Below are positions 7,139 to 63,735 of a stretch of DNA of 64,000 bases, one piece after another (within the stretch, counting starts at the first letter, position 1; each line of letters opens with the position of its first letter). The translations under genes and the position numbers were made by a program. This stretch comes from Octopus vulgaris. Taxonomy: Eukaryota. Below the pieces are notes generated by a model. That model saw only the letters and a program-made list of their open reading frames with translations. It made no database searches and was not told the origin of the DNA. The stretch covers positions 143,902,001 to 143,966,000 of the forward strand of contig OX597818.1 of NCBI GenBank assembly GCA_951406725.2, in the 5' to 3' direction.

Positions 7139-9716
7139 GTTTCCAACACATTCTTCATGACTAAGCCGCATCACCAGGTCTCATGGAGGCACCCAAGGTC
7201 CGGACACTAGCACCAACTGGACATGGTCATCACCCGGCGAGCCCACCTCGGCAGTGTGCTTCTCACACGAAGCTACCATGGTGCTGACTGTGATACAGAC
7301 CACTCTTTGGTGTGCAGCAGGGTCCGATTGGCCCCAAAGAAAATCAACCGTCCCGTAGGGAAAAGCCGCCCACGCATCAACACCGCCAGGACAACCAACC
7401 CCGACCTCCGCTCGGAATTCACCAACCGCATGGAGGAGGCCCTTAAAGATCACGCAGCCACCTCATCGAGGAGAGATGGCAGATTATTCGCGACACCACT
7501 TGCAGAATAGCCATGTCATCCCTAGGAAAGAGGGAGCGGAGAAATCAAGACTTGTTTGGAGCTCACCTGCCTGAGATGGAGCCTGTCATTGCTGCCAAGA
7601 GGGAAGCACTGGTCAACTATAAGCGCGACCCATCAGAAAAGAACCTGGCTACTCTGAGAACAGCCAGAAGCGACGCCCAGAGGACGGCCAGACGTTGCGC
7701 CAACATCTACTGGCAGAACTTATGCCAGAACATCCAGTGCTGTGCTGACAGTGGTAACGTGAAAGGGATGTACGAGGGGATGAAGAAAGCATTCGGGCCC
7801 ACTGTCAGAAAGGTTGCTCCACTGAAGTCCAGAGATGGCGAGGTCATCAAGGACCAAGCGAAGCAGATGGAGAGGTGGGTCGAGCATTACCAGAACCTCT
7901 ACTCCACTGAGAATGTGGTCACCAGGTCTGCCCTCGCCGGCATTCCTGCTCTGCCTGTCATGGAGGAGCTTGACCTGCCTCCAACAAAGGAAGAACTGAG
8001 CAAAGCAATTGACTCACTCGCTCGGGGCAAGGCACCAGGGCAAGACGGCATCCCCGCAGAAGTCATCCAGTGCGGGAAGCCAGCCCTTCTGGGCCATCTC
8101 CATGAGCTGCTCTGTCAGTGCTGGGAGGAGGGCTCTGTCCCTAAGGATATGCGTGACGCAAACATCATCACACTGTATAAAAACAAAGGGGACAGAAGCG
8201 ACTGCAATAATTACAGGGGCATATCACTGCTCAGCACTGTCGGTAAGGCATTTGCCAGGGTGGTCCTGAAGAGGTTGCAAATACTTGCAGAGCGTGTGTA
8301 CCCCGAGTCTCAGTCTGGCTTTAGGGCAGAGAGGTCTACAATTGACATGATCTTCTCACTCAGGCAGCTTCAAGAAAAGAGTCGAGAACAGAGACAGCCC
8401 CTATACGTGGCCTTCATCGACCTGGCTAAGGCGTTCGACTCAGTCAGCAGGGAGGGGCTGTTTGCACTCCTGGGTAGGATAGGTTGCCCTCCCAGACTGC
8501 TGAAACTCATCACCTCCTTTCACGACGGTATGCAGGGAACAGTGCAGTTTGACGGATCGCCCTCGGAGTCATTCCCCATCCAGAGTGGAGTGAAACAGGG
8601 TTGCGTTCTGGCGCCGACGCTCTTCGGAATTTTCTTCTCCTTGTCCTGTCCTATGCCTTCAGAACGTCCGACGACGGAGTGTTCCTCCACACCAGGGCTG
8701 ATGGTGGATTGTTCAATCTTGCGCGCCTCAGAGCTAAGACCAAAGTCCGTCAGGTGCTGATCAGAGATATCCTCTTTGCTGACGATGCCGCCCTGACATC
8801 ACACAACCAACCGGGTCTCCAGAGGCTGGTCAGCTCCCTGGCGGATGCCTGCCAAGAGTTCGGCCTTACCATCAGCCTGAAAAAGACAGAGATCATGGGC
8901 CAGGACGTCGGAGGGGTCCCCAGCATCAGTGTCGGCGACCACAGCTTGCAGGTGGTGAATGAGTTCACTTACCTGGGATCGACGGTCTCCAGCAGCCTGT
9001 CCCTCGAGCCGGAGCTGAACAGACGGATTGGGAAGGCTGCTGCTGCCATGGCTAAGCTCTCCAGGAGAGTGTGGGAAAACAACATGCTCACAATAACCAC
9101 CAAGATCGCAGTGTACCGAGCCTGCGTGCTGAGCACCCTACTCTACGGCAGCGAGAGCTGGACAACATACACCCGGCAGGAATGCCGCCTCAGCGGCTTC
9201 CACATGCGGTGTCTTCGACGGATCCTTGGCATCTCCTGGAAGGACCGAGTGCCAAACGGAGTCATCCTGGAACAGACTAATATGCCAAGCATGTATGCCC
9301 TCCTCGTGCGGAGACGACTGCGCTGGCTCGGACACGTCTGCCGCATGCAGGACGGTCGCATGCCTAAAGACATCCTGTACAGCGAACTTACCACGGGATC
9401 CCGACCCAAGGGACGTCCACAGCTACGATACAGGGACGTGTGCAAGCGCGACCTGAGGACTGCCAACATCTGTGTGGACACGTGGGAGAAAACAGCTGCT
9501 GACCGCTCTGCCTGGCGTCGGACGGTGAGGAAAGGCGTTTCCATGGCTGAGGAGAGGAGAGCACAGCTGTGGTTGGACAGGCGGGACAGGAGGAGGACAA
9601 CTGCAGCAACACCCCACACGTACCCATCGATGTTCGTGTGCAGCAACTGTACCAAGGACTGCCACTCTAGAATTGGACTGTTCAGTCACAGCAGACGCTG
9701 CACATCATCAAAGTAG
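7139..9716 (+). pseudogene. RTE ORF (APE-RT), disrupted by frameshifts near ~7475 and ~8640 and by isolated stops
   Basis: ORFs 7223-7510, 7513-8760 and 8601-9716 join into one RTE polyprotein. Confidence 0.9.
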
Positions 9717-22243: not shown

Positions 22244-23136
22244 TACAAGATCTGATCAATAAGTATCCGGACTGTTGCCATAGTAACGAAGCTAAAGCAT
22301 GCAGAGTGAAACTGCTGGGTATAGATTGACCTTGAACTCTGTTGTGTATGCCTACTAAGTTTTAACGTTCTAGCTCACTTCCGTTGTTTGCAGTAACGCT
22401 TGGAAGGAAGGTGTGTAGTGTGTGATCGTCACATTTTGACCATGACAGAGGTAGTTGTCATGACCTGCTCAGAGGCCTGCACAAAGTTGCAGAAAGTGTA
22501 TGGAGAGAAGTGTATGAACCGTAAATAAATGTACGAGTGGCTCAGTCGTTTCCAAGATGGCTGAAAAAGTGTCGATATTGACGAAGTTCTGGGAGATCTG
22601 CAACCAGGAGAACTGAGAAAAACATCACAGATTTGCGTGCAGCTGTGAGAGGAAATCATTGAATCACCACCCATGAGTTATCAGAGGATGTGCAGAATAG
22701 TTACAGTTCAGTTTAGTCCATTATCATTGAAGATTTGGGCATGAGACGTGTGTCTGCCAAGTTTGTGCGGAAACCACTTTCAGCAGACCAAAAAGACACT
22801 CGGGTTTCAGTCGCACAAGATCTCCTTGATTACGTCGAGAACGATGAAAATGTTTTGAAAACTTTGCGTAGGCCTCTGAGCAGGTATCGCCAAGCTTTTA
22901 GCAAAATTTGATGCAGATTCTCTGCTCAACTTTCTCTGTCATGGTCAATGCGGCGATCACACACTACGCACCTCATTCCAAGCACCGCTGTAAACAGCGG
23001 AAGTCGGCTAGAACATTAAAACTTAGTGCGCATGCCTAGTAGAGTTCAAGGTCAATCTGTGTTAGCGACTTCACCCTGTGAGCTTTAGCTTCGTTACTGT
23101 GGCAATAGTTCGGATACTTATTGACCAGACCACGTA
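22244..23136 (+). mobile_element. Mariner derivative built from two inverted left ends
   Basis: TA-bounded TIRs tacaagatctgatcaataagtatccg and cggatacttattgaccagaccacgta. Arms of ~240 bp include the transposase start (MTEKVEQRICIKFC on the minus strand at ~22940). Confidence 0.85.
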
Positions 23137-24045: not shown

Positions 24046-24088
24046 AATAATGATGACGTGTGATGCAATGTGGAAATTGTTATTGATA

Positions 24089-24125
24089 GGCGCAGGAGTG
24101 GCTGTGTGGTAAGTAGCTTGCTAAC
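24089..24125 (+). mobile_element. 5' head (A box) of a SINE family A copy split by two insertions
   Basis: ggcgcaggagtggctgtgtggtaagtagcttgctaac matches the head of the intact copy at 31474. Confidence 0.9.
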
Positions 24126-26109
24126 TGCGCATGTGCGAGTCAGTGTTGTGTTTGCTACTGAAGCAGTGAAGATGTGCTTTTGAAGCCGTCTTGAATTGAA
24201 AACTTTGGAAGCCCCATGTAAGGTAAGATTCTGTTTTCTGGATCCAGTGGGAGTTTTTGTTGAGAATTATTTTTTACATGCAGGAAGTCCTACTGGATTC
24301 AGAATTCTGATTCTGCCGACATGTGGCAGATATATTTTTCTCGCTGAGAAAATTTTGGGGGGCGTATCCGTCTTCGAATTGTGAAAATTGTATGGTGCTG
24401 TGAAGAACTACCAATTTTACACCAATTTTTGTGGAAGTTGTGCGATCCTGGTTCGATTTAGGCCGGGAGTACCAAATGGCCAAAAGGATTTTGCTGTGTT
24501 TTTGACTTTCTTTTTAACTTTATTTGACTTTCTTTTTAACTTTATTTGACTCTCTCCGTTTTTCATTGTGACTTTCTTCGGATTTCCTTTTCTTCTCGTT
24601 TTTTAGTTTTATTCTAAATACATTTATTTAAAAAAAAAAACAAAAAAACATGGCAACAAAAGAAACCACCGCTTTGGAATGGGAGGTCGTCCCACCAAAG
24701 CTGTGGATTGAAAGTCTTGAGAAGAGGACGGTGGTCCTACGAACCTATTCTAGGTCGCGTGGAGCCATTGCCCTCTTCGACAAGAATACTATAGAGAAAG
24801 AGTTGGGGGACTACCTGCCAACTATAAAATTTATTTCTCGGGGGAGCAAATTTGCAACGGTCTGGTTGCTATTTGGTACCCCCGAGGAAGCTAGCAGATT
24901 TGCTAGCGAGCCACTGGAGGGAGAGGAAATTTTGTTCCTCCCCTCGTATTGTGGCAGAAAAGTGAAAAGAGCCTGGGTGTGTGGGCTGCCCCCGGGCACG
25001 GAGGCGGAATGGATCGAAAAGACCATCCGGCGAGGCCTGGGGGATAGCGGACCCAGACTGCTAAGTGTGAAGGTGGCTCCTGCGGTCGCCTGGCAGGGGT
25101 CGAGGGCAACCTTGACCCTGTGGACACCGGTAGCGGTGGGGGAAATGAAATTCCCGGACTTCCTGAGAATGGCTGGGCACAGGTACCCGGTGATACTCGA
25201 GGGTCGCCCCCCCAAGTGTCACCTGTGCCTGAAGCCCGGACATATCAGGAAGAATTGTCCCAGGGGCCGTAGTGGTGCCCCGGAGCAGATAGGGGAAAAG
25301 GCGCCCGCCGCCCCCTCATTGGAGGGGGAGACGATGGAAGTCGTGGAGGAGGTTGCCTCCACGAAAAGAAAGAGAAAGGCGAGCAACAATGGTTGCCCGC
25401 CAAAGAACGCTCAGGGGGCGAAGGGGGATAGCAATCCCCCGTGTCTGGTGACAGAGTCCCCTGGGTCAGCAGTCTCCCCCAAAAGAAGGAGGAGAAAAAG
25501 AAGAGGTCGGACGACTGACGTTTCTGTGTCGCCGACGGAGCCGCGGGTGGGATGTGTGCCACCCGCGGACAAGGCTCCGCCAGTGGGAAGTGTGCCACCG
25601 ACGGAGGAGTGTGAGGTCCCTCCCTGTGAAGAGGAGATGCTTCTCCTCCTTTACCACAAGGGAGAGAAGGTTGAAAAATTCTTGACTGGCTTGGGTGACC
25701 GAGAGCGTAAGGACACGGTCGGCTCAAGGAGTCCGTTATGGCCTCCGCAGGTAGCTGCGGAGAAAGTAACAGAAGATACTTTGTCAAGGGTCGCAGAGAC
25801 CTTTGAAAAGAAAGACTTTACCTTTCTCTTTGCAGGCCCCGACTTGTCGTCGCAGAGTTGTCTGCAGGCGGCAAGACAATTTGCTTCGGGGACCTGACGA
25901 GAAGAATTGTTGAACATTTTTATGCAATTTGAATCATTGTTTATTAAATGTATTTATTGAAACATTGTTTTAGAGAAGCAAAAGTCGGCGGGCGCTTTCG
26001 ACTTCTCCCATCACCATCTTCATCAACCACCACCATCATCCATTAATGTCCTTGTCCAGCCCGTAGCTACTACTCTGTATGCTGCCCTAGTGGCAAATTA
26101 TTTAAAATA
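24126..26109 (+). mobile_element. ORF1-only non-autonomous non-LTR retroelement, copy 1, inserted in SINE A
   Basis: Flanked by a 15-bp TSD aagtagcttgctaac (24111-24125 and 26110-26124). Layout is 5'UTR, single gag-like ORF, conserved 3' tail ending AATAAA. No RT. Confidence 0.85.
24650..25897 (+). CDS. L1/Tx1-type ORF1 (gag-like, ZCCHC3-like) nucleic-acid-binding protein, 415 aa
   Basis: Intact GC-rich ORF. RRM-like blocks (RTVVLRTY..WLLFGTPEEA and AWVCGLPP..EWIE), EGRPPK plus CX2CX4HX4C knuckle (CHLCLKPGHIRKNC), basic NLS-like stretches and a disordered C-terminal half. Confidence 0.85.
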   Translation: MATKETTALEWEVVPPKLWIESLEKRTVVLRTYSRSRGAIALFDKNTIEKELGDYLPTIKFISRGSKFATVWLLFGTPEEASRFASEPLEGEEILFLPSYCGRKVKRAWVCGLPPGTEAEWIEKTIRRGLGDSGPRLLSVKVAPAVAWQGSRATLTLWTPVAVGEMKFPDFLRMAGHRYPVILEGRPPKCHLCLKPGHIRKNCPRGRSGAPEQIGEKAPAAPSLEGETMEVVEEVASTKRKRKASNNGCPPKNAQGAKGDSNPPCLVTESPGSAVSPKRRRRKRRGRTTDVSVSPTEPRVGCVPPADKAPPVGSVPPTEECEVPPCEEEMLLLLYHKGEKVEKFLTGLGDRERKDTVGSRSPLWPPQVAAEKVTEDTLSRVAETFEKKDFTFLFAGPDLSSQSCLQAARQFASGT

Positions 26110-26812
26110 AAGTAGCTTGCTAACCAGACATGCGCAGTTAGTCGGTTGCTTCTTGTTGAGCTAGAGTGGACGTGAGTCCAACTAAAGAAAAAAGACCAAA
26201 AACGGAAAGTTGTCGAGGTAAGTGATTTTGTTTATTGTGAGTTGGGCATAATTTATTGCGTGCCAATTATTATTTCAGTAGGTTGTGTCCAACTCTGAGA
26301 CAATTTCGCCTGCGCTAGGCGGCTGCCGTTTTTGTGTTCATTGAAAAAAAAAAAAAAAAAAGAAAAAACAGTGGAGGGGCGTATACTCAGAATTCAATAC
26401 AGTTACTGTTAAAATTACCGTTGGCAGTAACCAGTGCTGTGTTTGAGTTTGCTGAATTTATTCCCTTGTCAGAGTACTTCGCAAGAAAAGTATAAAAATA
26501 AGCCACTATTGGATTACCTTTCGGACCCATTTTTGTGGAGGTTGTGTTGCAGTTGCGGCGTTCCAGGTTCAACCCAGGCCGGGAGTACCGCAGAATATTT
26601 TTGCTGTGTTTTTTCTGTTTATTAACTTTCTTTTGAACTTCATTTACCCCCCCCCCTTTTTGTTTTTTCTTTATTGCGACTTTCCGTTAATTTCTTCCCT
26701 TCTGTTGTGCTTTCTCCTTTTTGTTTTTTCAAAAATCTATCAAATTTATTTAGACTTTTGAACTTTTTTCTTCCTGCTTTTGAGTCTAATTTGAATATAT
26801 TTTTTAAAAAAC

Positions 26813-28057
26813 ATGGCAATGAAAAATAACAAAGTTTTGGAGTGGGAAATCATACCACCCAAAAAGTGGTTGAAGGACCGTGAAGATAGGACGGTGGTGT
26901 TGAGAACCTACTCCAAGGCACTTGACACCATCGCCCTATTCGAAAAGACGGCAATTGAGGAGGAGTTGGAGGAGTATTTGCCAACAATTAAATTCATTTC
27001 CAGGGGTGTCAAATATGGAACGGTGTGGTTGCTGTTTGACACCCCTGAAGAGGCTTGCAAATTTGCTAGCGAACCCTTGGAGGGTAAGGAAATCTTATTC
27101 CTGCCCACTTACAAAAAAAAGAAATTGATGAAAGCTTGGATCTGCGGACTGCCACCCGACATAGAACCCGAGTGGATAGAGGAGACTATCCGCCGGGGTC
27201 TGGGTGACAGCGAAACTAAGCTCCTCAATGTAAAAGTCCTTCCTGCGGCTGCTTGGGTTGGCTCGAAAGCAGTTTTGACCCTGTGGACCCAATCAGCCAA
27301 TCTGGTTTTTCCAGATTTTTTGAAAATGGCCGGGTGCAGGTACCCGGTGATGCTTGAGGGTCGCCCCCCTAAGTGTCATCGGTGCTTGGAGTCCGGCCAC
27401 ATAAAGAAGAACTGTCCTCGGGAACAAAATAGGATCCCGGAACAGTTAAGTAAAACCCCTCTAGAAGAGGGAACGATAACGGCCGAGAAAGCAGAGGACT
27501 CCTCAAGCAGAGGCCGAAAGAGGAAGGTGAGCAACAATGGGTGCTCACCAAAGGATAATAGGGATGAGGAGAGGAGGGCGAATCTTCCAGCCACGGAGGA
27601 GACGCACCCTCCCTCAGTTGAAAAGGGAAAAAAAAAGAAAAAGAGGAAGAAAAACGGGACGTTGCCGGCTGTCAGTGTGGCACCGGAATGTCGCGGAACT
27701 ACGTCGGTTGGGGTTGTGCCACCGACAAGAGAAGGAATACCGTTGGCGGAAACTGTGCCGCCAACGAAAGAACCGAATGTATTGGTCCTCTTCTATAGAG
27801 GAGGAGAAATTGAAAAAGTGATGGAAGAGCACTACAAGGGAGCACCTTTAGCCTTCACACAGGACCCCGAATGGCCTCCGCAGGTAGCTGTGGAGGCCGT
27901 GGCGTTCGACGTGACGCTAGGGCTAAAGGAGCTCAATGAAGACTATAACTTGGTCCCGGGCGACGCGAACTCGGAACTTGACTACGTTCTGAGGGAGGCG
28001 TGGTTGATGGTGGAGGGCGCGGGCACAAGCTATTTCGAGGACGATATGTATTATTAG
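26813..28057 (+). CDS. L1/Tx1-type ORF1 protein, 414 aa, paralogue of 24650-25897
   Basis: Intact ORF. The N-terminal ~205 aa align almost without gaps to copy 1 (roughly two-thirds identical by eye). Knuckle CHRCLESGHIKKNC. RKRK.SNNGC.PK and WPPQVA.E are shared. Confidence 0.85.
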   Translation: MAMKNNKVLEWEIIPPKKWLKDREDRTVVLRTYSKALDTIALFEKTAIEEELEEYLPTIKFISRGVKYGTVWLLFDTPEEACKFASEPLEGKEILFLPTYKKKKLMKAWICGLPPDIEPEWIEETIRRGLGDSETKLLNVKVLPAAAWVGSKAVLTLWTQSANLVFPDFLKMAGCRYPVMLEGRPPKCHRCLESGHIKKNCPREQNRIPEQLSKTPLEEGTITAEKAEDSSSRGRKRKVSNNGCSPKDNRDEERRANLPATEETHPPSVEKGKKKKKRKKNGTLPAVSVAPECRGTTSVGVVPPTREGIPLAETVPPTKEPNVLVLFYRGGEIEKVMEEHYKGAPLAFTQDPEWPPQVAVEAVAFDVTLGLKELNEDYNLVPGDANSELDYVLREAWLMVEGAGTSYFEDDMYY

Positions 28058-28184
28058 TAATGGACTTAAGTCCAAAAATTGAAAAATTGTAAGAGGATTA
28101 ATACCTCGTTTTGTATTAATAATGGACTGCTAAGCCCAAAATTGGAAAAATTGTAAGAGGTTTAATACCTCGTTTTGTGTTAAT
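28058..28184 (+). repeat. ~63-bp tandem duplication in the 3'UTR of copy 2
   Basis: aatggact..aaaaattgtaagagg.ttaatacctcgttttgt.ttaat occurs twice. Confidence 0.85.
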
Positions 28185-28353
28185 CTTTTTAAAAAGAACA
28201 ATGTTTTAGAGAAGCAAAAGTCGGCGGGCGCTTTCTGTCTTCTCCCATCCTTATCATCTTTCTTTCATTATCATTCACCTCATTAATGTCCTCGTCCAGC
28301 CCGCAAAGCTAACTTAATCTGTGTACTGCCTTTATGGCAAATGTTTTGAAATA

Positions 28354-28745
28354 AAGTAGCTTGCTAACCAAGCACATGGTTCCGGGTTCAGTCCCACTGC
28401 GTGGCATCTTGGGCAAGTGTCTTCTGCTATAGCCTCGGGCCGACCAATGCCTTGTGAGTGGATTTGGTAGACGGAAACTGAAAGAAGTCTGTCGTATATA
28501 TGTATATATATGTATGTGTGTGTATGTCTGTGTGTATGTGTTTGTCCCCCTAGCGTTGCTTGACAACCGATGCTGGTGTGTTTACGTCCCCGTCACTTAG
28601 CGGTTCGGCAAAAAGAGACCGATAGAATAAGTACTGGGCTTACAAAGAATAAGTCCCGGGGTCGATTTGCTCGACCAAAGGCGGTGCTCCAGCATGGCCG
28701 CAGTCAAATGACTGAAACAATTAAAAGAGTTAAAAGAGTTAAAGA
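28354..28745 (+). mobile_element. Remainder (B box, body, tail) of the split SINE A
   Basis: Resumes aagtagcttgctaaccaagcacatggttccgggttcagtcccactgc..., colinear with 31496-31900, and ends in an (aaagagtt)n tail. Confidence 0.92.
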
Positions 28746-29626
28746 GAGTTGTTGATGCTACTAAATCTCTGATTCTTTGTAAAGTATCTAAGTTTTTTTG
28801 TTAATTTATGTTAATTACAAATGTTTGCCAGCTTTTGGTTGACTTTGATTTACATTTTTTATTACTTCGTTGTTTAGTAGCTCAATGATATCATGAGCAC
28901 GTATGCATCCGTTCTTCTAAGTTGGTAGGGTATAATTTGACGGGAATTTGGCTGCTATTTCTTGCATGTTGAGTGGCCACACAAAGTCTCTTTTATTGCT
29001 AGAGGAGTTTCATTAGTTATTTGATCATAGAACTGCGTAACGCATACTTATTTTACTATAACACTTCCTTCACTTTTGACAAACTGGGATATACTAATAT
29101 TCTCGATTGGAGATATTTCTTCATTTCTACATTTCTCTGACTTCTCCCTCTTTGATGACGGTCTACTCAGCTTATGGAATCCTTACCCGATACCATGATC
29201 CACATGCTTGGCTATTCTAGAAACAGCTGTAAGAGAGTCTATATATTTATATTTCCTGCCTAAATTAGATATTTCTTTCGAGTGATGCCAAATGGCTTGC
29301 TTTTTCAATTTTACAGATATAGGGTGAAAGATAATTAATACAAATATTGTTGTCTGTGGAGGCATATTTTTGTTGAAAAAGGAAATAGTAGTCCTTTGGT
29401 TGCTATTTCTAAAATTTTCGGTATGTGGTCAAGCAACTTGTTGCAAAATCCTTATTGTTATAAATATATATATATATATATTAAACAGCCGAAATTACTA
29501 AGATGATCCGGTTCCCGACTGAAGATTAGAGGCTTCGAGTGACCCGTCTGTTTTTTTTGTGTCGTCTCCTTGTGTGTTTTTGCGTTCTTGTCCCACTTTG
29601 TAATTTATATTTTATATTTAATTTCT

Positions 29627-31473: not shown

Positions 31474-31900
31474 GACGCAGGAGTGGCTGTGTGGTAAGTA
31501 GCTTGCTAACCAACCACATGGTTCCGGGTTCAGTCCCACTGCATGGCATCTTGGGCTAGTGTCTTCTGCTATAGCCCCGGGTCGACCAAAGCTTTGTGAG
31601 TGGATTTGGTAGACGGAAACTGAAAGAACCCTGTCGTATATATGTATATATATATATTTATATGTGTGTGTGTGTATGTGTTTGTGTGTCTGTGTTTGTC
31701 TCCCTAGCATTGCTTGACAACCGATGCTGGTGTGTTTACGTCCCCGTCACTTAGCGGTTCGGCAAAAGAGACTGATAGAATAAGTACTGGGCTTACAAAG
31801 AATAAGTCCCGGGGTCGATTTGCTCGACTAAAGGCGGTGCTCCAGCATGGCCGCAGTCAAATGACTGAAAGAAGTAAAAGAGAAAAAAAGAGAAAGAGAA
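31474..31900 (+). mobile_element. Intact (empty-site) SINE family A copy
   Basis: A box TGGCTGTGTGG, a single aagtagcttgctaacca, B box GGTTCAGTCCC, internal microsatellite and aaagag tail. Confidence 0.9.
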
Positions 31901-32424: not shown

Positions 32425-33580
32425 GGCAAACAAGGATAGACAAACGGATTAAGTCGATTACATCGACCCCAGTGAGTAACTGGTACTTATTTAATCGACC
32501 CCAAAATGATGAAAGGCAAAGTCAACCTCGGCGGAATTTGAACTCAGAACGTAGCGGCAGACGAAATACTTATTTCTTTACTACCCACAAGGGGCTAAAC
32601 ATAGAGGGGACAAACAAGTACAGACAAACGGATTAAGTGGATTATATCAACTCCAGTGCGTAACTGATACTTAATTTATCGACCCCAAAAGGATGAAGGG
32701 CAAAGTCGACCTCGGTGGAATTTGAACTCAGAACGTAGCGGCAGACGAAATTCTGCTAAGCATTTCGCCCGGTGTGCTAACGTTTCTGCTAGCTCGCCGC
32801 TTTAAGAGCTCCCCTCTGTGTTTAGCCCCTTGTAGGTAGTAAAGAAATAGGTATTTCGCCTGCCGCTACGTTCTGAGTTCAAATTCCGTTAGTTCGACTT
32901 TGCCTTTCATCCTTTCGGGGTCGACTTTGCCTTTTATCCTTTCGGGGTCGATTAAATAAGTACCAGTTACGCACTGGGGTCGATATAATCGACTTAATCC
33001 GTTTGTCTGTACTTGTTTGTCCCCTCTGTGTTTAACCCCTTATGGGTAGTAAAGAAATAGGTATTTCGCCTGCCGCTACGTTCTGAGTTCAAATTCCACC
33101 GAGGTCGACTTTGCCTTTCATCTTTTCGGGGTCCATTAAATAAGTACCAGTTACTCACTGGGGTCAATATAATCGATTAATCCGTTTGTCTGTCATTGTT
33201 TGTCCCCTCTGTGGTTAGCCCCTTGTGAGTAGTAAAGAAATAGGTATTTCGCCTGCCGCTACGTTCTGAGTTCAAATTCCGCCGAGGTTGACTTTGCCTT
33301 TCATCATTTTGGGGTCGATTAAATAAGTACCAGTTACTCACTGGGGTCAATATAATCGATTAATCCATTTGTCTATCCTTGTTTGTCCCCTCTGTGTTTA
33401 GCCCCTTATGGGTAGTAAATAAATAGGTATTTCGTCTGTCTTTGCGTTCTAAGTTCAAATTCCGACGAGGTTGACTTTACTTTTCAGCGTCGATAAAATA
33501 AGTACCAGTTGCGTACTGGGGTCAATGTAATCAACTGTCCCCCGCCTCAAAAATTTGGGGACTTGTGCCTAGAGTAGAAA
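32425..33580. repeat. Inverted and tandem array of SINE B units
   Basis: Two minus units (32425-32803) face about four head-truncated plus units of ~180-210 bp joined by aaagaaata|ggtatttcg. Confidence 0.85.
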
Positions 33581-62070: not shown

Positions 62071-63735
62071 AAGGGAGTCTGAATGATATCTCACTGGTTC
62101 ACAAGGAAACAGAAATACCAAAATCACACACTGTTTCTTTGTGGATGACTTAAAACTTTTTGCAAAGAATATGCCCGAGATGAGAAAGACCCTTGACCTA
62201 GTTACAACATTCTCAAAGGATGTAGAGTTGGAGTTTGGTCAGGATAAATGTTGTTATATGGGTGTAGAAAGGGGGAAAACTGTAAACAAGACTAGTAACA
62301 TCTCCCTCAATGATTTGACTGTTTCCTCTTTATCTGACGAGGAATGTTACTGATATTTAGGGGTGGATGAAAATATATCTTACAATGGCACCTGTAACAA
62401 AACACGTGTCACTAAAGAATATTACGGCCGAATAAAGAAAATTTACACTTCAGAACTCTCTACATTCAATAAAACAGTGGCCCACAATGTGTTTTCAGTG
62501 TCAGTACTCATACCAACATTTGGCCTGCTTGATTGAACGCTTGATGAGATCCGTGCCACTGATGTGGAGACCCGAAAAATACTAACAAGCACGCATGATT
62601 TCCACATAAACAGTGAAATAGACCGCCTCTACCTAAAACGAAAACATCTAAAACGGTAACATCTTTTAACCACCAGGTGTTGAAGTGTATCCCTTGACCG
62701 AGTTTGCATACATGAAACTGATAACGTCATAAGACTTGGAAGGCAGCTCCTTGAGCAGCACTCTTTGTTTGATAACCTAGAACACATACCCAAAATAATC
62801 ACACGACTCTACTACAACGTTTCATCAGATGAAAGGATGAGCCTATATGAGCAGAAGGCTATGCATGGATATGTCAGTAGAAAGCTCTGTGATGATAGTA
62901 ACATCGATAATTAAAGCAGTTTATCATGGACCAATAGCCGGATTACTACCTCCTACTTTGAAGGGTATGCGTATGCAACCCAGGAACAGGAAATATCCAC
63001 CAAGTACCTGATACACAAAAGAGACAGAGATGCAGGAAAATCCGTAAAATGTGACTACCGATACAGACTTTGTGGAGTTCCACACTAAAGATATCACCCA
63101 CATCATAAGCAGTTGTCTGAAAATGTCATCACGGTATTATCTACCGATGAGACATGACGTTGTAGCTAGGACACCCTATAATGAAATCCGTCGGAAAGAT
63201 AACCCCGAGGACAAAGAAATAAGAACTCACAATATGGTAGAAGCCATAGCCATTCATAATAAAAAGGAATACTGGTATGTATGTATGTATGTATTGAGGA
63301 CCTCAATAAAATGTAAGCACAACAGACCTGATATAATGATTTGGGATAGAGAAGAGAAACTGTGCAGAGTTGTGGAAATTAGCTGCCCAGAGGATGTTAA
63401 CATAAAGCTGAAGATCAGTGAAAAAGAGAACACATATACTGAACTATTGAGCAATCTACAGTTACTCTATCCAGATTACAAGTTCAGGTTTATGCCTGTA
63501 ATTATTGGGGCCCTGGGATATGTAACACACTACCTAAATAGCAATCTTGAGAAATTAGGCTTCTCAAAACCAGAACAAAGAAACTTAATTTGAAGACTAC
63601 AGATTCAATCCATCACTGGAACTGTAAAAATTTGTAAAACTTTCCAGAAGTTTATCATTTGAATATATATGAGCCTGTCTAGATATGCAACTGTATGCAT
63701 GAGAATACCTACTTAAAACATACAAATCTGCACAT
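62071..63735 (+). mobile_element. Decayed RLE-type non-LTR retrotransposon (R4/Dong-like), 5'-truncated
   Basis: FVDDLKLFA (RT), YLG, A.QEQ.I.T, CCHC relic with HIISSC, RHDVVA, and the endonuclease motif HNRPDIMIWD..VVEISCP..PVIIGALG. Many stops. Confidence 0.85.

Follow-up and report, generated by a model that had tools for sequence, protein, structure and literature searches.

Two non-LTR (long terminal repeat) retroelements, here termed A and B, lie head-to-tail within an abundant short interspersed nuclear element (SINE) in a 64,000-nucleotide stretch of the Octopus vulgaris genome (NCBI GenBank assembly GCA_951406725.2, contig OX597818.1, positions 143,902,001 to 143,966,000 of the forward strand; hereafter the window, whose coordinates are used throughout). 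Each carries a single long open reading frame (ORF), ORF1, and no ORF2 is present between the target duplications of either. Read from left to right, with all features on the forward strand, the locus consists of the 5′ piece of the host SINE head (24086..24110), which matches empty SINE copies at 31481 and 60137; a first target-site duplication, AAGTAGCTTGCTAAC (24111..24125); element A (24126..26109; 2.0 kb); a second duplication (26110..26124); element B (26125..28353; 2.2 kb); a third duplication (28354..28368); and the remainder of the SINE with its short tandem-repeat end (28369..28750), which is 91% identical over 306 bp to the empty SINE at 31481-31800. Element A comprises a 5′ untranslated region (UTR), an ORF1 of 415 aa (24650..25897) and a 3′ tail (25961..26109); in B an ORF1 of 414 aa occupies 26813..28057 and the tail 28197..28353. 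The boundaries of both elements recur at other loci. Copies of the 15-mer begin at 24111, 26110 and 28354, and once in each of three uninterrupted SINE copies elsewhere in the window: six matches with up to two mismatches, where 0.09 are expected. The insertion point falls between motifs of the SINE that by eye look A-box-like (24099-24109) and B-box-like (28385-28395); neither ARAGORN nor Rfam returned a tRNA in the host SINE.

The two ORFs had been singled out from the letters alone as intact and deeply divergent, a description that holds: neither contains an internal stop and the proteins are 51% identical. Identity is highest over aa 1-205 (68%) and lower across the linker (39%) and the C-terminal portion (26%). 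Two motif islands, RKRK.SNNGC.PK and WPPQVA.E, are kept in both proteins, as the original prediction noted; its further statement that the C-terminal half is rearranged proved mistaken, for the two halves are colinear with indels and consist of a predicted disordered linker followed by a folded domain.

The predicted architecture of the A protein is an RRM (aa 14-103), a second RRM (aa 103-186), a CCHC knuckle (aa 190-203), a disordered basic linker (aa 212-314) and a folded alpha/beta C-terminal domain of ~85 aa (aa about 330-412) that carries the WPPQ motif; alignment indicates an A-like architecture for B. The AlphaFold model was derived from a 54-row alignment (mean predicted local distance difference test score, pLDDT, 75; about 90 in domains), the same procedure with only 2 sequences being uninformative (pLDDT 33.6). 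Fold matches to the RRMs include UP1, a tandem RRM protein (Foldseek, E=2e-5), and the La RRM (Z 9.4; root-mean-square deviation 2.6; 83 aligned). Pfam returned only a zinc knuckle, below threshold, and no Transposase_22 match was listed for the ORF1 rows. The original view of an element without reverse transcriptase (RT), of L1/Tx1 type and with RRM folds, is supported. RRMs directly upstream of a CCHC knuckle, as in the A/B model, define type I ORF1 (PMC4120745), which has been seen with Tx1 (PMC5203782). The structure check was less informative for the WPPQVA domain, which has 125 matches among ORF1-only copies: it is modelled as folded, and sequence searches yielded no usable relative in the Atlas, no consistent Pfam family and no PDB match, while fold searches with the full model were filled by RRM matches. 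One full homolog of ORF1 was found in protein databases, the uncharacterised Octopus sinensis protein P0003 (60% identical), together with one partial match; a search for longer homologs returned none, which is weak evidence.

The tails of A and B are 79% identical, and both end in TGCC-N5-GGCA (26083-26095 in A, 28327-28339 in B) followed by AAATA, with no poly(A). Copy-number analysis, proposed as a check in the original prediction, gave at least 150 genomic matches to the ORF1 N-terminus and at least 1,049 insertions at the site: exact tail-target junctions number 1,049 in the genome and 1 in the control, and, with 52,366 exact empty SINE sites, about 2% of sites are filled. A tail motif has 207 exact genomic copies, and 40 copies of the 161-bp B tail are 100% identical. 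In one hundred loci (L001-L100), fetched independently of the junction pattern, an internal motif identified 81 distinct tails, of which 80 terminate at the SINE site. The elements sit interstitially, within SINEs, on many contigs; some copies are 5′-truncated, and copies 99-100% identical are spread over many contigs. Exact duplications range over families from 7 to 17 bp, besides longer tandem-identical matches, lengths that are confounded by SINE variants. Across families the tail hairpin has a constant stem and a variable loop; its stability is not greater than that of shuffles in A (z -1.1) or B (z -0.4), with z -2.1 for the partner element described below, and the hairpin call therefore rests on the conserved stem with variable loop. 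Among four further short-read runs, three yielded contigs with A-like sequence, under three organism labels. Runs that were only guessed to be RNA likewise contain contigs covering A and B, the length of one being 2,083 bases; these are not counted as evidence.

Elements with an ORF2 share the site. In a sample of 64 junctions from 60 regions (drawn from the first 100 listed, most previously examined ones being left out), 17 had a match to ORF2 on the 5′ side of the shared tail, 29 had an A/B-clade ORF1 without ORF2 and 18 had no coding match. The main partner family is 5.4 kb long, with most copies 98-99.7% alike, and one copy (L153) has an intact ORF1 of 466 aa and an intact ORF2 of 1,132 aa. 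This ORF2 contains Exo_endo_phos, RVT_1 and zf-RVT (Pfam) together with catalytic motifs, and its best PDB match is L1 ORF2p (E=8.5e-67). It thus has the L1-like ORF2 architecture of the Tx1 group – an apurinic/apyrimidinic-type endonuclease (APE), RT and a C-terminal zinc motif – and insertion is sequence-specific, into a multicopy target; on architecture and targeting, Tx1 appears the appropriate label for the system. The partner has a duplication and terminal tail as in A and B, and occurs in the same arrays as A. When A and B were compared by blastn with four copies of the partner family, a single stretch of ~36 terminal bases, in B and L155, was matched; the partner ORF1 is only 28% identical to those of A and B. 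A related tail also occurs on further L1-like families of the genome, which have other targets. A suggested role of the ORF1 protein (ORF1p) in target choice is not needed: because Tx1-type elements are considered to select their target chiefly through the endonuclease (PMC4494074), and a partner with intact endonuclease and RT uses the same site, ORF1p need not pick the site. We had also considered the C-terminal domain to be absent from autonomous ORF1s, a view that was softened. These have a similarly placed segment, without detectable profile similarity to the A/B domain (for the partner, probability 0.1%); the C-terminal domain of L107 does match it (E=5e-5).

Three other routes to a partner were rejected. 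The L084 element is inserted within an ORF1-only copy; the SINE site of the L085 family is absent from its other sampled copies (L101-L108); and a canonical Tx1-type tail at the site marks, in most of the 30 instances inspected (of 52 matches), a different SINE, L139 being the only full-length element at the site among those 30. Several further arrangements occur. Loci L083-L085 form a nested cluster (G000:C7 13.47-13.50 Mb) with one full-length L1-like element inside an ORF1-only ORF and a second that has an ORF1-only 5′ UTR and the SINE target duplication on its flanks. The SINE site or its vicinity occasionally holds an insertion of a second SINE, whose end is the canonical tail of the other L1-like families and whose duplications vary (L122-L150; window 32894-33532). 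Tandem arrays contain up to seven A units and are terminated by a B unit or by the partner (L079-L080, L211-L212, L214-L216, L219-L220). Further ORF1-only elements, L113 (reverse strand, about 510-2270) and L116 and L120 (upstream of their full-length elements), occupy two other targets, where they carry the same tail and target duplication as different full-length L1/Tx1-like families; ORF1 identity is only 34-36% with their partners and 32-34% with A.

A tree built from 30 N-terminal domains, not counting five representatives that were redundant or shortened, recovers one clade at 100/100 on a long stem. Its 15 rows are A, B, ten ORF1-only rows from the SINE site, two unclassified rows and the O. 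sinensis protein. None of the 12 autonomous ORF1s falls inside it, and ORF2 is absent from all 29 clade elements sampled. The clade holds more than ten families, 55-91% identical, and shows module swaps: an A-type N-terminus is combined with a B-type C-terminus in L061 and an E-type N-terminus with an A-type C-terminus in L081, and in L214 a B body carries the 5′ end of an A-type element. All ORF1-only rows lie on one side of a branch with weak support (82/73, long branches), and at the three targets the companion ORF1 is only 28-36% identical to that of its own partner. The original prediction was right about an RT-less element, and missed the SINE-specific insertion, the partner and the many sister families.

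Comparison of A with B over the N-terminal region gives a ratio of non-synonymous to synonymous substitution rates (dN/dS) of 0.11-0.22 by three methods (bootstrap with the Nei–Gojobori method, NG86: 0.055-0.19, 175 of 200 resamples computable), from which it follows that selection acted in the RT-less lineage. In family B (36 copies, with one duplicate removed) several copies share 36 synonymous and 18 non-synonymous substitutions, a ratio of non-synonymous to synonymous polymorphism (pN/pS) of 0.20 (p=5e-9); for private substitutions the ratio is 0.63. Two close pairs show constraint on the C-terminal domain (dN/dS 0.19-0.41). The dN/dS proposed as a check with the original prediction is accordingly far from 1 at the N-terminus; most close copies are disrupted in the assembly. 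Intact ORFs are found in 7 of 25 copies of A (two duplicates dropped) and 8 of the 36 of B, that is 15/61. Purifying selection on ORF1 in the RT-less clade stands, then, but the intactness of the two window ORFs, originally ascribed to it, is explained by the youth of the insertions. Many of the frameshifts may be assembly errors: 63 of 100 lie beside homopolymer runs of at least 5 bases, and the commonest ones are not tied to one haplotype.

Together the boundaries, duplications, site specificity, intact partner, common tail, single clade and purifying selection described above lead us to regard A and B, with reasonable confidence, as young copies of two ORF1-only families that insert at a fixed position in the SINE head, probably using their own ORF1p in cis and borrowing the endonuclease and RT of the partner. 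The element would be transcribed, likely from an internal promoter, and its own RNA would be coated by ORF1p; the partner ORF2p would bind the common 3′ hairpin tail and introduce a nick into the SINE at GGT^AAGTAGC, from which target-primed reverse transcription would start. The duplicated target would restore the site, which would allow tandem arrays such as A-B to build up. Selection would act on source copies that still transpose, and not on every inserted copy. Mobilisation by ORF2p in trans is suggested by the common tail and target, and ORF1p would act in cis; the same cis-ORF1 and trans-ORF2 inference has been drawn for HAL1 (PMC3627910), and a cis preference via ORF1p is described for L1 (PMC4161310). 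A bolder possibility, which we put forward tentatively and think rather doubtful, is that octopus harbours old, independent protein-coding hyperparasites: ORF1-only elements with their own RNA-packaging protein that take on the tail and target of whichever site-specific Tx1 element they exploit. The low identity between companion and partner ORF1s at three targets and the weakly supported branch that groups all ORF1-only rows speak for it. Such hyperparasites, resembling satellites with a coat of their own, would use their ORF1p in competing for the ORF2p of the partner.

Several observations weigh against cis-acting ORF1p in an old RT-less clade. Constraint is weaker in the clade (median dN/dS 0.24, 35 of 78 pairs usable) than among autonomous elements (0.03-0.18, 5 of 10 usable). 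Shared substitutions in family A have a pN/pS of 0.59 (p=0.04), and private ones 0.58. For the C-terminal part, dN/dS is 0.6-1.0 between A and B, where dS is near-saturated and the value unreadable, and 0.75-0.81 between A and L067, which is barely constrained. One frameshift is common to 16 of 31 A copies at 7 loci; were it real and inherited, a broken ORF1 would not block mobilisation. Partner ORF1 as sister to the A/B clade was not rejected in an approximately unbiased (AU) test (p=0.16), so that the clade may have an old origin in the partner lineage. Finally, the junctions that were read make up a small fraction of the 1,049, and an autonomous member of the A/B clade may exist among the rest.

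This last point bears on the idea that A, B and their sisters each arose recently and independently, by deletion, from unsampled or extinct autonomous families, the selection signal stemming from the time when ORF2 was still attached. HAL1 arose several times independently (PMC5753468), ORF2 has been lost repeatedly in telomeric elements (PMC13534243), and our genome protein searches for ORF1 covered the best 150 matches. However, no A/B-clade ORF1 with its own ORF2 downstream was seen in the 64 sampled junctions or in 40 further regions, a hidden parent would be needed for each of the more than ten families, and the substitutions common to present-day RT-less B copies are themselves under selection; we consider such an origin unlikely. 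We attach similarly little probability to ORF1p having been kept for a benefit that is not strictly cis, be it in trans among sisters in an array or transcript, or through translation that protects the RNA or recruits ORF2p. A copies are mostly found in arrays, usually 5′ of B or of the partner, and on contig C1 16 of 85 junctions fall in four arrays, against about 2% site filling; both the excess and the order remain unexplained by the model, and the recurrent A frameshift is a further point in favour of a non-cis benefit. Yet this frameshift falls within a run of G, is seen on two haplotype backgrounds and is missing from the listing of short-read contigs for three other runs (weak evidence, as contigs drop variants), the commonest B frameshift is scattered over haplotypes, and the general association of frameshifts with homopolymer runs applies here too; amino-acid conservation of the folded RRM pair points to protein function.

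Domestication of the ORFs as host genes like ZCCHC3 or L1TD1, the alternative named in the original prediction, is highly improbable. ZCCHC3-RBD clusters do appear in the Atlas (score 0.90), and the ORFs are intact and constrained. Against this, Pfam RBD_ZCCHC3 is unmatched in 29/29 rows at E up to 1, and in place of a single fixed, immobile locus there is a multicopy, recently mobile population: the abundant ORF1 matches, the target duplications, the 5′ truncations in places and the near-identical copies on many contigs reported above, with most copies broken in the assembly. Cis-acting ORF1p with a borrowed ORF2p remains our preferred account.

Other features of the elements and of the window deserve mention. 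The B 3′ UTR contains a 64-bp tandem duplication (28052-28184) that was found in all B copies checked. Elements begin with GCGCATG-like motifs (24126-24140 and 26125-26140 in the window; 30 of 123 distinct starts, which include some false starts), which we presume to resemble an NRF-1/Ewg site and which may be part of an internal promoter. A splice-donor-like AGGTAAG or AGGTAGG is present at 24220-24227 and 26216-26222 and at many loci, mostly 85-130 bases from the 5′ end (58 of the 123 starts), even among unrelated 5′ UTRs. Elsewhere in the window, where the original prediction saw only broken transposable-element ORFs, a long RT ORF is 5′-truncated and split over two frames (7447-8757 and 8553-9713), with RVT_1 as its only Pfam match, and presumably represents an RTE-like element (7447-9713). 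A putative decayed mariner-like fragment lies at 22250-23130, and 63123-63593 holds a 156-aa fragment that may resemble an R4/Dong-type C-terminus, for which Pfam is uninformative.

The system offers a natural test of the standing question of why non-LTR elements need ORF1p in cis while SINEs do without it. An autonomous element, companions that encode a protein and a SINE whose tail is related, and which is occasionally inserted at the same site, are all present within a single genome. It adds the SINE head to the list of Tx1-type targets, likely a low-cost one with over 52,000 empty sites, and the small partner and companion pair constitutes an assayable site-specific system. For annotation, ORFs of this kind have already been called uncharacterised Octopus genes, as in the case of P0003, and should be treated as repeats.

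In the literature searched, with Repbase and Dfam uncompared, we found no prior account of a SINE-head target combined with an ORF1 of type I and a diverse clade of RT-less elements whose ORF1 is distant from that of their partner. A study of O. vulgaris repeats (PMC13282606) reports 80 L1-Tx1 consensi, and its text and one supplement make no mention of ORF1 or target sites; its repeat library, Repbase or Dfam may already hold these families.

Among known systems the closest in kind is mammalian HAL1, an ORF1-only, non-autonomous element of the L1 clade with lasting ORF1 coding capacity (PMC5753468, PMC3627910), for which cis-acting ORF1p and trans-acting ORF2p have likewise been inferred. A and B share with it the lack of ORF2 and selection on ORF1. 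They differ in that HAL1 is derived from mammalian L1, with a type II ORF1p (coiled coil, RRM and C-terminal domain), whereas the A/B ORF1 is RRM-RRM-CCHC (type I) and only 28% identical to that of its partner, the end lacks poly(A), the target is sequence-specific and the host is a mollusc. Drosophila HeT-A and other ORF1-only telomeric elements resemble A and B in their Gag-like CCHC ORF1 and in head-to-tail arrays mixed with ORF2-bearing partners (PMC13534243), and telomeric ORF1-only lineages yield new ORF1-only families, a further likeness to A and B. HeT-A, however, belongs to the Jockey clade and forms arrays at chromosome ends, whereas A and B are of L1/Tx1 type and interstitial, flanked by target duplications inside a SINE. 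A third parallel is provided by Tx1 elements with sequence-specific insertion: Tx1L inserts in Tx1D, Keno in U2, and Tx1-Mar, with SINEU, in Mariner-N4_AMi. As here, an APE-RT element and a non-autonomous companion have a common target inside another repeat, and insertions in tandem have about 16 bp of duplicated target between them (PMC4494074). Unlike in these systems, the target here is a SINE head rather than a DNA transposon, small nuclear RNA gene or microsatellite, and the companion is protein-coding, not a SINE. Judged by sequence, then, the A/B system appears to work as HAL1, HeT-A and the companions of Tx1 do, while belonging to neither HAL1 nor HeT-A.

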